A DNA stretch of 64,000 bases from Gryllotalpicola sp. (lineage in GTDB: Bacteria > Actinomycetota > Actinomycetes > Actinomycetales > Microbacteriaceae): positions 72,956 through 136,955 of the forward strand of contig DASWPQ010000060.1 in assembly GCA_036398375.1 (NCBI GenBank). The letters run 5' to 3'. This document shows, piece by piece, positions 49,962-54,818 of this stretch (the stretch's first letter is position 1; each line of letters begins with the position of its first letter). Below the pieces are notes generated by a model. The model did no database searches and had not been told where the DNA came from. It saw nothing but the letters and a program-made list of their open reading frames with translations. The position numbers and the translations under genes were made by a program.

Positions 49962-50891
49962 CTACGGAAGGATGTAGCCCGCTGCCGTGAAGAGGCGGTA
50001 CCACTCCGTGCGGCTCAGCGGCAGCTCGCTGCCGGCGGCGGACTCGCGCACGCGCTCCGGCTTGGTGGTGCCGAGCACGACCTGGAGCCGCGCCGGGTGC
50101 CGGGTGATCCACGCGACGGCGATCGCGGTGGGCGTGACGCCGTACTTCGCCGCGAGCTCGTCGATCGCGTCGTTGAGCTCCGCGTAGTTCTCACGGTCGC
50201 CGAGGAACACGCCGTTGAAGAACTGCTTCTGGAACGGCGACCACGCCTGCAGCGTCATGTCGTTCAGGCGCGAGTAGTCGAGCAGCCCGTTGTCACGATC
50301 GATCGACTGGTCGAGCCCCGCCATGTTCGCGGCGATGCCCGAGGCGAACAGCGGCGCGTGGGTGATCGACAGCTGCACCTGGTTGAAGGCGAGCGGCTGC
50401 TTCACGTACTTCTTCAGCAGCTCGATCTGGCCGGGGCGCTGGTTCGAGACGCCGAAGTTGCGCACTTTGCCGGCTTGGAAGAGCTCGTCGAAGGCCGAGG
50501 CGACCTCCTCCGGCTCCACGAGGGTGTCGGGACGGTGCAGCAGCAGCACGTCGATGTAGTCCGTGCGCAGCGCCTTCAGCGAGCCCTCGACCGACTCGAG
50601 GATGTGCTCCTTCGAGAAGTCGAAGGAGCCCGGGCGGATGCCGGTCTTGGTCTGGATCACGATCCGCTCGCGCTCGGAGGAGGAGAGCTGCAGCGCGTCG
50701 CCGAAGCGCTGCTCGCACACGTGCGGGGCGCCGCCGTAGACATCCGCATGGTCGAAGAAGTCGATGCCCTCCTCGCGCGCGGTGCGGTACAGGGTGCGGA
50801 TCGCCTCGTCGTCGAGGTCGGCGATGCGCATGAGCCCGAGGATGATGTTCGAGGTCGTGAGATCGGTCTGGGGAAGGGTGAGTTTCTTCAC
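49962..50891 (-). CDS. Aldo/keto reductase (YdhF-like)
   Basis: FFDHADVYG, LLLHRPD, GKVRNFGVSN, QAWSP. Confidence 0.93.
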   Translation of the reverse strand: MKKLTLPQTDLTTSNIILGLMRIADLDDEAIRTLYRTAREEGIDFFDHADVYGGAPHVCEQRFGDALQLSSSERERIVIQTKTGIRPGSFDFSKEHILESVEGSLKALRTDYIDVLLLHRPDTLVEPEEVASAFDELFQAGKVRNFGVSNQRPGQIELLKKYVKQPLAFNQVQLSITHAPLFASGIAANMAGLDQSIDRDNGLLDYSRLNDMTLQAWSPFQKQFFNGVFLGDRENYAELNDAIDELAAKYGVTPTAIAVAWITRHPARLQVVLGTTKPERVRESAAGSELPLSRTEWYRLFTAAGYILP

Positions 50892-50916: not shown

Positions 50917-52374
50917 TCATCGTCGCGAGGGCTCGTGCGCCAGCGAGATCGGCTCGGACACCGCCTCGAGGGATTTGCGCTCGGCGTCCGTGCCGAAGAC
51001 GATCGCGATGATGCCGCCCAGGATCATGACGCCCGCGCCCACGAAGTAGCCGATCGTGAGCGGCCCTCGCTGCGAGCCGTCCCCGACGAGCGCGCCGAAC
51101 ACGCTCGGCGCGACCGCGCCGAAGATCTGCGCCAGGGCGAAGAAGTACGAGATCGCCTGGCTGCGCAGCTCGAGCGGGAAGGTCTCGCTCACGGTCAGGT
51201 AGGCGCTGGATGCCCCGGCGGAGGCGAAGAAGAACGCCACGCACCAGAAGACCGTCTGCGTGACCGCGTCGAGCGTTCCCGCCTGGAAGAGGATCGCCGA
51301 GGCGGTGAGCACGAGCCCGGAGAGCACGTAGGTCCCGAAGATCATCTTGCGCCGCCCGACGGTGTCGAAGAGCCGGCCGAGCACGAGCGGGCCGACCAGG
51401 TTGCCGACGGCGAAGGGGAAGAAGAAATAACCGGTCTGATCGCGTGGGATGTCGTAGAAGTTCTGCAGCACGAGCGCGTAGCTGAAGAAGATCGCGTTGT
51501 AGAGGAACGACTGCGTGATCATCATGGCGGCGCCGGTGAGGGTGCGCTTCGGATACTTCGTGAAGAGCACCCGGGCGATGACGCGGAACGGCACGTGCTC
51601 GATGGGACGCAGCTCGATCGCCTCGTCGTCCGAGACGGGCCGGAGCTGCCCGCCCTGGGACTCGACGCGCCGTTCGATCTCGTCGACCGTGCCATCGGCA
51701 TCCGCCGCATGCCCGTGGGTGACGAGCCAGCGCGGACTCTCCGGGATGTGCCGGCGCAGGTAGATGATGAACAGGCCGATCACGGGGCCGATCCAGAATC
51801 CGATGCGCCAGCCCCAGTTCTGGTCGATGACGTCAGCGTTGTAGAGCGGCAGGCTCGCCGCCGCTCCGAGCGCCGCCCCGCCCCAGTACGTGCCGTTGAT
51901 CGCGATGTCCACGTGCCCGCGGTAGTGCGAGGGGATGAGCTCATCGATGGCCGAGTTGATCGCCGCATACTCGCCGCCGATGCCCGCGCCGGCGACGAAG
52001 CGGAAGAGCAGCAGGAACCAGTACGAGAAGGAGAAGCCCGCGATCCCGCTGCCGACGAGGTAGATCGCGAGGGTCAGGATGAAGAGCCGTTTACGGCCGA
52101 GGCGATCGGAGAGCCAGCCGAAGTAGAGGGCGCCGCAGACCTCGCCGACGAGGTAGACGGTGCCGACCACACCGACTTCGGCGCTCGTCAGGTTCAGCGT
52201 CTGCGCGTAGCCGTTCGAGGCGACGATCTGGATCTCGAGCCCGTCGAGCACCCAGGAGATGCCGAGGCCGAAGACCACGGACCAGTGGAACCTCGTCCAG
52301 GGCAGCCGGTCCATCCGAGCCGGAACCAGACTCCGGACGGTCCCCCCTGCGCTCGAGCTCGACGTCGCTGTCAT
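50917..52374 (-). CDS. MFS transporter
   Basis: SDRLGRKR, GAGIGGEY, DTVGRR, SETFPLELR. Confidence 0.93.
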   Translation of the reverse strand: MTATSSSSAGGTVRSLVPARMDRLPWTRFHWSVVFGLGISWVLDGLEIQIVASNGYAQTLNLTSAEVGVVGTVYLVGEVCGALYFGWLSDRLGRKRLFILTLAIYLVGSGIAGFSFSYWFLLLFRFVAGAGIGGEYAAINSAIDELIPSHYRGHVDIAINGTYWGGAALGAAASLPLYNADVIDQNWGWRIGFWIGPVIGLFIIYLRRHIPESPRWLVTHGHAADADGTVDEIERRVESQGGQLRPVSDDEAIELRPIEHVPFRVIARVLFTKYPKRTLTGAAMMITQSFLYNAIFFSYALVLQNFYDIPRDQTGYFFFPFAVGNLVGPLVLGRLFDTVGRRKMIFGTYVLSGLVLTASAILFQAGTLDAVTQTVFWCVAFFFASAGASSAYLTVSETFPLELRSQAISYFFALAQIFGAVAPSVFGALVGDGSQRGPLTIGYFVGAGVMILGGIIAIVFGTDAERKSLEAVSEPISLAHEPSRR

Positions 52375-52569
52375 CCGCTCTCCCCTTTCCCCTTCCACAC
52401 GCCTTCTGCGCCCATCTGTGCACAAAGGAAGCTAGTCATCACTCCGCGCTCGAGGAAGTGGCTTGCATTCTGCACGCGAGCGTGGCAAGGCCGCAGGAGG
52501 CGCGGGGAGGCGCCGTCCGGGGAGGACACGCGGGCGTCGGGAGCACGCGGCTCGCGGGCGTCGTGCGGA

Positions 52570-52719
52570 TGCGAGCGTCTTCGAAGCCCCACCCGACTCC
52601 GAAGACGTGCACGCAGACCGGCACCTGATAGCCCCGGCAGGGGCCGCGACCACCTCGTCGTGGTCGTTGCTTTCGAGGCGTCGGGATTCGCGCAATCCCC
52701 CGGATCCCCGTTGATCCGT
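52570..52719 (-). ncRNA. Candidate structured RNA (unassigned)
   Basis: Five consecutive hairpins with G-U pairs on the minus strand, directly after a TTGACG-N17-CAGTGT promoter. Confidence 0.55.
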
Positions 52720-52825
52720 TGGCAACACTGCACTGCTCCCGACGGCACGTCAAGTCACGGTTCGGGCAAGATCCACACCGCGCCGGAGCGCCGATCGACG
52801 GCGACGCGGTCCGCTTCGACGCGGG

Positions 52826-53266
52826 CTAGGAGTCGGCGATCGTGCTGAGCAGCGCGCAGGCGCGGGCGATCGCGTCGCGGTCCTCTGCGCTGAGCGCCTG
52901 CAGCTGGGCGTCCAGCCAGGCGTGACGCTGGGCGCGCGCGGCGATGGCGAGCTCGGCGCCCTCTGGCGTGATGCTGAACAGCACCTTCCGGCGGTCGTTG
53001 GGGTCGGGGGTACGGACCGCATAACCGGCCGAGGTGAGCCGGTTCACGCTCTGGCTCATCGAGGCGGGAGCGACGTGGTCGTGCTCGCTCAGCCCGGTCA
53101 GGGTCTGCGGGCCGCTCTTGTACAGCCGGGTGAGGACGTCGAGCGCCGTGTCGCCGAGTGTGCCCTCCGGTCGCTCGCTACGGAAGCGGCGGTAGAGCCG
53201 CCCCACCGTCGACCGCACCTGACCGCCGAGCCCGTCGGAGTCCTCACGTGTTGCGCCTGTGCCCAT
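52826..53266 (-). CDS. MarR family regulator
   Basis: SMSQSVNRL..AGY..R.PDPNDRR..ITPEG. Confidence 0.93.
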   Translation of the reverse strand: MGTGATREDSDGLGGQVRSTVGRLYRRFRSERPEGTLGDTALDVLTRLYKSGPQTLTGLSEHDHVAPASMSQSVNRLTSAGYAVRTPDPNDRRKVLFSITPEGAELAIAARAQRHAWLDAQLQALSAEDRDAIARACALLSTIADS

Positions 53267-53272
53267 GAGTCA

Positions 53273-53308
53273 TTAGTATACCTAAAAGTAAGCCTTTAGT
53301 ATACCTAA
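53273..53308. promoter_or_regulatory. Tandem MarR operators
   Basis: TTAGTATACCTAA at 53273-53285 and 53296-53308, each TTAG-N5-CTAA. Confidence 0.8.
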
Positions 53309-53357
53309 TCACCGCGTTGGACCACCCTCGCTCGCGTTCCTCATGATCGGAGCACCC

Positions 53358-54818
53358 ATGACTTCCCCTCACGCCGCCGAGGAGGCGGCTGCCACAGGCA
53401 GCACCCCCTTCTCCTGGCGGTTCACCACTCCGCTGTTCATCGGTTCCGCGCTGAACCCCATCAACAGCTCGATGATCGCCACCGCCCTTGTGCCGATCGC
53501 CACCGGTCTGCACGTTCCCATCGGCCAGACCGCGTCCCTCGTGACCGCGCTCTACCTCGCCAGCGCCATCGCCCAGCCCACGGCCGGCAAGGTCGCGGAG
53601 GTCTTCGGCGCGCGCCGCGTCTTCCTCGCCGGGATCGTCCTGGTCCTGATCGGCGGCGTCCTCGGCGGCGTGGCGCGGGACGTCCCGATGCTGCTCATCG
53701 CCCGGGTGCTGATCGGCCTGGGCACCTCCTGCGCCTACCCCTCGGCGATGATGCTCATCCAGCGGCGCGCCCGGGCCGCAGGGCTGGAGAAGCCGCCGGG
53801 CGGGGTGCTCGGCGGTCTGCAGATCGCGGGCATCGCGACCGCCGCGCTGGGCCTGCCGATCGGCGGCGTGCTCGTCGAGACCGCCGGCTGGCGCTGGGTC
53901 TTCCTGGTCAACGTCCCCGTGACCCTCATCGCGCTGGCCGCCGCGCTGATCTGGATTCCACGCGACCCGCCCCAGCAGGCGCCGCGGAACGCACGCGAGG
54001 TCCTCTCCCGCATCGACCTCACCGGCATCCTCGGCTTCGCTCTCGCGATGACGGCCCTGCTCGGATTCCTGTTCTCCCTGCCGAACCCGAACTGGGTCGT
54101 GCTGGCCGGCTCCGTCATCCTGTTCGTCGCCCTGACCCTGTGGGAGCTGCGCGCCGCGCATCCGTTCTTCGATGTGCGGATGCTCGTCCGCAACGCGGCG
54201 CTGACGCGGACGTATCTGCGCTTCGCGCTCGTCGCGGTGTGCGTGTACGTCGTCCTCTACGGCATCACCCAATGGCTGGAGGTCGGGCGGGGGATGTCCG
54301 CGCTCGCCTCCGGACTGCTGCTCCTGCCGATGAGCGTGATCTCCGGTGTCGTCGTGGTGCCGATCTCGCGGCGCAACCTCGTTCGCGGCCCGGTCATCGT
54401 CGCCGGCCTGGCCAGTCTGGTCGGCGCCGTCGGCGCGCTGTTCCTCAGCTCGGGAACGGACATCGTCTGGATCGTGGCGATCACCCTCGCCTTCGGCATC
54501 GCCCTCGGCACGGCATCCAGCGGCAATCAGATCGCGCTCTACACCCAGGCTCCACCGGATCAGCTCGGCGTCGCATCCGGCCTGTTCCGCACCTTCGGCT
54601 ACGTCGGATCCATCGCCTCCTCCGCGATCACCGGCGTCGTCTTCCACACCCGCGTCAGCGACAGCGGCGTCCACCTCATCGCATGGATCATGATCGGCCT
54701 CAGCATCGCCACGGTGGCACTGTCGGTCCTGGACCGCTCCGTGCGGAGCCCCGGCAGACCCGATCGCCCCGAACGTCCGTCCGCACGCGTCCCGTCCTCA
54801 AGAATCATCAGAGAGTAA
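53358..54818 (+). CDS. MFS (DHA2-like) efflux transporter
   Basis: LNPINSSMIATAL, GWRWVFLVNVP, many TMs; GGAG RBS before ATG 53358. Confidence 0.92.
   Translation: MTSPHAAEEAAATGSTPFSWRFTTPLFIGSALNPINSSMIATALVPIATGLHVPIGQTASLVTALYLASAIAQPTAGKVAEVFGARRVFLAGIVLVLIGGVLGGVARDVPMLLIARVLIGLGTSCAYPSAMMLIQRRARAAGLEKPPGGVLGGLQIAGIATAALGLPIGGVLVETAGWRWVFLVNVPVTLIALAAALIWIPRDPPQQAPRNAREVLSRIDLTGILGFALAMTALLGFLFSLPNPNWVVLAGSVILFVALTLWELRAAHPFFDVRMLVRNAALTRTYLRFALVAVCVYVVLYGITQWLEVGRGMSALASGLLLLPMSVISGVVVVPISRRNLVRGPVIVAGLASLVGAVGALFLSSGTDIVWIVAITLAFGIALGTASSGNQIALYTQAPPDQLGVASGLFRTFGYVGSIASSAITGVVFHTRVSDSGVHLIAWIMIGLSIATVALSVLDRSVRSPGRPDRPERPSARVPSSRIIRE

Follow-up and report, generated by a model that had tools for sequence, protein, structure and literature searches.

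A structured RNA with its own promoter-like sequence in Gryllotalpicola, ancestrally located between oxidase and catalase genes

Does the stretch between a regulator gene and a transporter gene of Gryllotalpicola encode an RNA and, if so, does this RNA serve the genes behind it or act on its own? The question is raised by a 452-nt gap that separates a MarR-family gene (52829-53266) from an MFS transporter gene in the window, that is, the whole 64,000-nucleotide stretch of DNA analyzed, which comes from a wood-decay metagenome. In this gap a minus-strand RNA of ~145 nt, covering about 52720-52576, is found downstream of a promoter-like TTGACG-17-CAGTGT arrangement. A preliminary description, made by reading the nucleotides, had proposed that a novel RNA, composed of five consecutive hairpins and preceded by a promoter of its own, lies upstream of the MFS gene and is either a small RNA or a long regulatory leader. 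Gryllotalpicola occupies wood-decay and insect-gut habitats; to our knowledge few structured RNAs are known in the Microbacteriaceae, and none has been described for this genus. The features of the locus are collected in Table 1.

Table 1. Features of the RNA locus, in window coordinates
Feature	Position	Strand	Remarks
-35-like hexamer TTGACG	52748..52753	minus	TTGAC invariant in 10/10 homologues, spacer sequence variable
-10-like hexamer CAGTGT	52725..52730	minus	fits CAnnnT
Remnant homologous to the last GMC codons of relatives	52754..52775	minus	blastn from ~52774, alignment
P1, 6-bp hairpin, loop AAYGGN	52701..52718	minus	predicted RNA 5' end
P2/P2b 5' strand, GCGC...CCGnCnnnCG	52674..52694	minus	MFE fold and consensus fold; overlaps hairpin 2
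P3, 7-bp hairpin CGACCAC/GUGGUCG	52647..52666	minus	
P4, short hairpin GGCCCC/GGGGCU	52630..52645	minus	length variable, 3-4 bp in relatives
P2/P2b 3' strand	52608..52628	minus	MFE and consensus fold, covariation
P5, 13-bp 3' hairpin, G-rich loop GGGUGG	52576..52607	minus	conservation ends here
200-nt fast-evolving RNA-MFS spacer	52375..52575	minus	catalase gene at this place in most relatives
MFS transporter (Sugar_tr/MFS_1)	50920..52374	minus	first downstream gene here
Aldo-keto reductase	49965..50891	minus	last gene of the conserved string

The 156-nt RNA of the minus strand folds at -79.2 kcal/mol with a z-score of -3.29, none of 200 shuffled sequences being as good, and the plus strand of the same stretch has a z-score of -1.82. 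The five hairpins first recognized by eye all form when folded alone, with energies of -7.6 kcal/mol (52718-52701, z -3.9), -6.8 kcal/mol (52699-52683, z -2.1), -11.6 kcal/mol (52666-52647, z -3.2), -10.7 kcal/mol (52645-52630, z -1.8) and -20.7 kcal/mol (52607-52576, z -5.3). However, the second of them (GGGAUU/AAUCCC) is not conserved in relatives; there, and in the fold of the whole molecule, its place is taken by a long-range GCGC/GCGC helix, the closing stem of a multi-branch junction. An RNAalifold consensus of eight sequences and a covariance-model alignment of ten agree on P1, P2/P2b, P3, P4 and P5, with P2 enclosing hairpins P3 and P4 in a three-way junction. Several unpaired stretches are conserved as well, namely GGGGGAU after P1, AGCAA, and the GCCrACCCC and GGrCU that flank P4. 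The P1-P4 core is present in all ten sequences, and P5 is swapped for unrelated sequence in the lineage of genome G004 and contig L059. No canonical intrinsic terminator was found at P5, the 10 nt past this hairpin holding one or two U, although the same genome contains ~120 strong hairpins followed by at least five T in 10 nt; read-through beyond P5 is therefore expected. Two further arrangements, a closing helix between a G-rich linker and the C-rich tail and a switch between P5 and an alternative hairpin, were considered and discarded: both are seen only when single sequences from some lineages are folded, in differing registers and without covariation. A pairing of the P5 loop with the C-rich tail is confined to a single subgroup, again without covariation.

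Covariation had been named from the outset as a check on the RNA, and pairs changed on both sides exceed the controls in both alignments analyzed. In the model-fitted alignment 94% of the cells are paired, against 31-44% in slid controls, and both partners have changed in 15 pairs (shuffles, 5.0 ± 1.7; slid controls, 3-5). The plain MAFFT alignment of the core gave 93.9% of cells paired (28-41% in slid controls) and 7 pairs changed on both sides (2.6 ± 1.2 in shuffles, 2-3 in slid controls). The changes support the 5' hairpin, the three-way junction and the 3' hairpin. While the P1 stem is invariant except for A-U to G-U replacements in two sequences, compensatory changes occur at 6-8 pairs of P2/P2b and at 5 pairs of P5. 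In P3, where 98.6% of the cells are paired, C-G becomes U-G at two pairs, in four sequences each, and A-U becomes G-C or U-A in two sequences. The support given by covariation is clear but modest, since only ten distinct, related sequences are available. The paired cells hold 44 G-U against 6 A-C combinations, from which it follows that the minus strand is the RNA strand; the same orientation had been deduced earlier from the G-U pairs of the window.

The promoter hexamers and the 17-nt spacer between them (52753-52748 and 52730-52725) were borne out as first described, and the proposal of an own promoter gains weight from the conservation of both hexamers around a variable spacer in the ten sequences, a CAnnnT box standing 17-18 nt from TTGAC in each. 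In the 64 kb of the window TTGAC-N18-CANNNT is matched at this site only, the expectation being 0.27 occurrences. Compared with the actinobacterial TAnnnT, the -10 box retains A2 and T6 and has C in place of T1; because it starts with C, the site was not called in a strict sigma-70 scan. In the comparison of homologues P1 begins 6-7 nt past the -10 box, hence the predicted transcript starts with P1. From these features we infer that a SigA-type promoter belonging to the RNA drives its transcription on the minus strand, with a start at about 52720. Across species none of the reading frames is kept open or in register, which speaks against a small protein.

The limits of the element are also marked by its rate of change. 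The whole region is covered, in the gene order of the window, by contigs of a close strain from public runs. Between both sequences, the ~150 nt of the RNA differ by three substitutions (52628, 52630 and 52679) and the promoter spacer by one (52743), whereas ~17 substitutions and 3 indels were counted over the 75 nt of the downstream flank (52496-52570) and ~12 substitutions over the 52 nt of the upstream flank (52765-52816); differences start again at 52570, past P5. The change at 52679 turns a G-U into an A-U pair, its partner being 52623 in the 3' strand of P2/P2b. At the level of sequence comparison, these data show that selection acts on the promoter and the RNA and that the element is functional. 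They also bear on the view that there is no RNA feature at all and that the repeats are DNA operator palindromes for transcription factors, or are incidentally conserved. Three of the repeats have 6-nt centres, like the binding sites of dimers, and in the window a MarR-family gene stands just upstream. Nevertheless, compensatory changes keep the pairing between positions 60-80 nt apart, the preference for G-U over A-C is relevant for one RNA strand only, and the element contrasts with its flanks in substitution rate; moreover, the MarR gene belongs to a divergent pair with an MFS-efflux gene and is found beside the RNA in no relative. An origin of the pattern in DNA operators or in incidental conservation is thus highly improbable.

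The novelty of the RNA was examined by comparison with known families and with related genomes. Rfam 15 gave no match at gathering thresholds in the whole window, and a search of 52300-52900 at E ≤ 10 gave three chance matches to eukaryotic snoRNAs or miRNAs, of 10-15 bits against cut-offs of 42-61, so the Rfam check leaves the claim of novelty standing. By blastn against 60 relatives the region was found in genomes of the same genus, seven of which match at 70-78% identity, the similarity spanning roughly 52575-52774, that is, the RNA, the promoter and ~20 nt upstream. Covariance model R1 found one copy in each of eight of the nine Gryllotalpicola species genomes, the negative one being a 1.8-Mb assembly in 200 contigs, and the element is also carried by three metagenome contigs (L059, L060 and L071). 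The same model found no copy in 150 other Microbacteriaceae genomes, in a search with strict filters in which few candidates per genome were scored, and none, with its filters off, beside the GMC oxidoreductase orthologues of five other genera, where a 21-bit match proved to be the FAD-binding coding region of the GMC gene. The core-only model R2 detected no copy in 150 genomes of the order; its single match, of 32.7 bits, is antisense inside a HrpA-like helicase gene and hence due to chance. Pattern scans of genome and metagenome collections, the source of the three metagenome contigs, recovered copies from Gryllotalpicola only, the remaining matches being due to chance. The idea that relatives have another copy upstream of the GMC gene was also discarded, all the weak matches (18-25 bits) lying in coding sequence. 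In the literature nothing relevant was found on Gryllotalpicola RNAs or on RNA motifs linked to catalase. Lack of an Rfam match, confined conservation, covariation and G-U asymmetry together support the initial view of a novel structured RNA on the minus strand: a previously undescribed element, narrowly distributed in one genus, Gryllotalpicola.

A 24-nt string of P1 and its linker (CGGATCAA..GATCCGGGGGAT) is shared with terminator hairpins of rhizobia and sphingomonads (L025:7727-7768; L028:1300-1335; L031:3515-3552), two of which directly follow a tRNA gene. The covariance model indicated that these alphaproteobacterial hairpins are unrelated, and they were rejected as homologues.

The neighbouring genes give a picture of the locus older than that of the window. 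Ancestrally, one strand carries in succession a GMC oxidoreductase gene, the promoter and the RNA, a gene for a 716-aa HPII-type catalase, the MFS gene and the aldo-keto reductase gene. The GMC oxidoreductase is cholesterol-oxidase-like according to NCBIfam, with a score below the cut-off; such an enzyme likely produces H2O2, and catalase removes peroxide. The GMC gene ends 0-10 nt before the -35 box, or overlaps it, in the seven relatives first examined (7/7), and the catalase gene of relatives starts ~55-75 nt past P5. Order, strand and short gaps are preserved in the catalase-MFS-reductase string. No orthologue of the GMC oxidase was found in the window genome, whose catalase is only a 45%-identical paralogue located elsewhere. 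What persists of the oxidase upstream of the -35 box is ~20-40 nt homologous to its last codons, reading ..DLARTVT-stop, with the TGA stop overlapping the -35 box. A catalase remnant was sought in the 200-nt spacer, where the best match (28 nt, E 0.005 in a tiny search space) was not significant. Since the window has lost both oxidase and catalase, the MFS neighbour stressed in the preliminary description is secondary: it is indeed the first downstream gene here, with the last hairpin ending at 52576 and the MFS ATG at 52374, which agrees with the ~200 nt first estimated, but in most relatives the large catalase gene lies behind the RNA. Among NCBIfam models, that of the aromatic acid/H+ symporter family comes nearest to the MFS protein. 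No catalase gene follows the RNA in the window, in genome G007 or in contig L059, and G004 additionally lacks the MFS gene; where catalase is absent, the promoter and the RNA stand directly in front of the remaining genes.

Other features were observed around the element. The MarR-family gene, on the minus strand and with the Rv0880 family as its best NCBIfam match, is divergently paired with a gene for an MFS_1 efflux-type transporter (53343-54815, plus strand), a typical regulator/efflux pair, which takes as a whole (52829-54815) the place of the GMC gene found upstream of the RNA in all relatives. In G. koreensis (L029:6541-7452) the GMC gene is immediately preceded, on its own strand, by genes for an ArsR-family regulator and an SRPBCC (AHSA1-like) protein, which extend the co-directional string to six genes. 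In G007 (L002:1690-1740) the stretch from the RNA to the MFS start contains a 9-bp perfect inverted repeat, GTCATGCAA..TTGCATGAC, a possible operator that the other genomes lack. About 25-35 nt upstream of the catalase start there is a conserved box, CGTTAGCG, followed 12-14 nt on by GGGAAC, also given as GGGGAAC (L024:3404-3472, L029, L030, L060; L026:1350-1422), and GGGAAC lies in the loop of a small hairpin abutting the ATG. This box, which may be the promoter or operator of the catalase gene itself, remains with the catalase in G. ginsengisoli (G003/L026), despite a 1-kb gene between box and RNA. The latter, a luciferase-like monooxygenase gene, is an insertion (L026:345-1355) absent from this place in the other Gryllotalpicola loci examined.

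The closeness of the oxidase stop to the -35 box, with no terminator before the RNA, makes read-through from the oxidase gene likely. This would suit a passive intercistronic element for stability or processing of an oxidase-catalase-MFS-reductase message, in which strong terminal hairpins such as P1 and P5 would guard the message on their upstream side against 3' exonucleases and that on their downstream side against decay dependent on the 5' end, without sensing or any independent function. However, a protective hairpin needs no conserved three-way junction with invariant unpaired nucleotides, nor would it account for promoter hexamers conserved around a free spacer, and the RNA is kept in the window though the oxidase gene is gone. 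A purely passive role is accordingly quite improbable.

The reading that we favour, tentatively and with somewhat less than even confidence, is that of a cis-acting 5' leader of the co-directional genes behind it, in preference to a stand-alone small RNA. The RNA would head a gene string, ancestrally composed of large catalase, MFS and aldo-keto reductase genes and here of the MFS and reductase genes. Its conserved junction would sense or bind a small molecule or a protein, and the 3' module, which varies (P5 or what replaces it), would govern the amount of transcription, or of stable message, that reaches the genes; short transcripts, stopped or trimmed and with P1 and P5 at their ends, would build up as a side product. 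The position of the element agrees with this arrangement, as the next gene is co-directional in nine of the ten contexts and in eight of them starts ~55-95 nt past the structured part. So do the constancy of the catalase-MFS-reductase string, the absence of a U-tract after P5 and the retention of promoter and RNA before whatever remains of the string. That the core is maintained in all the sequences and the 3' module replaced in the G004/L059 lineage is as expected of a conserved sensor joined to a variable output module.

In its conserved core and variable 3' module, in its place upstream of co-directional genes in nine of the ten contexts, and in having a promoter-proximal multi-stem junction with conserved unpaired nucleotides, the element resembles leaders of the riboswitch type. 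It differs from them in lacking an Rfam match even at E ≤ 10, a U-tract terminator and a conserved pairing with the ribosome-binding site, in being found in one genus, and in having a copy, that of G003, with no co-directional gene behind. A conserved structured sensor with covariation is present (P1-P4 in 10/10 sequences; 7 pairs against 2.6 ± 1.2), but no output module competing with the sensor was detected, nor a U-tract terminator through which it could work. We know of no riboswitch class that controls catalase. An unlikely specification of the leader is that the three-way junction, as the sensing part of a new riboswitch or of another direct RNA sensor, ties the expression of catalase and of the transporter/reductase pair to a metabolite or signal linked to the oxidase.

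Several observations weigh against a leader of any kind. In G. ginsengisoli the RNA is kept although the convergent luciferase-like gene ends ~25-30 nt past P5 and the catalase, with its upstream box, is 1 kb away; hence the RNA cannot be the catalase leader there. The consistency of the downstream genes, suggested in the preliminary description as a means to tell cis from trans action, was in this way only partly obtained: co-directional in nine contexts, with a convergent gene directly behind the RNA in the tenth. In the window, 200 nt of fast-evolving sequence separate the RNA from the MFS start; no output logic was recognized, with neither U-tract terminator nor conserved pairing of the ribosome-binding site; the -10 box beginning with C escaped the strict promoter scan; and the small set of related sequences keeps the covariation statistics modest.

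Some of these same observations would be explained by a stand-alone, trans-acting small RNA of ~145 nt with its own promoter, ending at or trimmed to P5. It would act by base pairing, through the C-rich GCCrACCCC or the G-rich loops, or by protein binding, and its adjacency to oxidase and catalase would reflect inherited synteny, possibly along with a role in peroxide stress. The conserved block consists of promoter and RNA, its limit falling no more than 5 nt from the end of P5; both predicted ends carry stable hairpins, and the spacer before the MFS gene evolves fast. Furthermore, the RNA was kept through independent rearrangements, namely the loss of the oxidase here, the absence of catalase in three contexts and the convergent insertion in G003, whose copy, with no co-directional gene behind, scores 110 bits and has compensatory changes. 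On the other hand, P5 lacks the U-tract of the canonical terminators of the genome and is not kept in the G004/L059 lineage, and in nine of the ten copies a co-directional gene follows at a short distance. A look for transcripts found no RNA run listed for this DNA, and among the contigs of the one metatranscriptome from the same study none covers the element. We rank a free small RNA, a possible explanation, second to the leader.

Two known small RNAs are useful for comparison. The 6C RNA (Rfam RF01066) is a phylum-wide actinobacterial small RNA with two C-loop hairpins. As a short, GC-rich, multi-hairpin actinobacterial RNA with its own promoter, the element is like 6C, and its conserved C-run could likewise pair with purine-rich ribosome-binding sites; it matches neither 6C nor other small RNA models, its loops are rich in G instead of C, and it forms a three-way junction confined to a single genus, unlike the two C-loop hairpins found across the phylum. 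With the enterobacterial peroxide-stress small RNAs of OxyS type, taken as a lead only, it shares a length of ~110-150 nt, at least three stem-loops, an own promoter and a neighbourhood of peroxide defence. However, it has no homology to them in sequence or structure and no OxyR-like regulator beside it, the genes upstream in G. koreensis being ArsR-like, SRPBCC and GMC oxidoreductase.

The RNA is placed between a gene for a likely H2O2-producing oxidase and a gene for a large catalase. If, as the favoured leader reading would have it, the RNA regulates those genes, it would represent a new RNA-based control of peroxide handling during the oxidation of lignocellulose or sterols. Should it instead act as a free small RNA, we would be dealing with a young regulator, specific to this lineage, the emergence of which can be dated to a single genus. 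Several Gryllotalpicola species are cultured type strains, so that the function of the RNA is directly testable.
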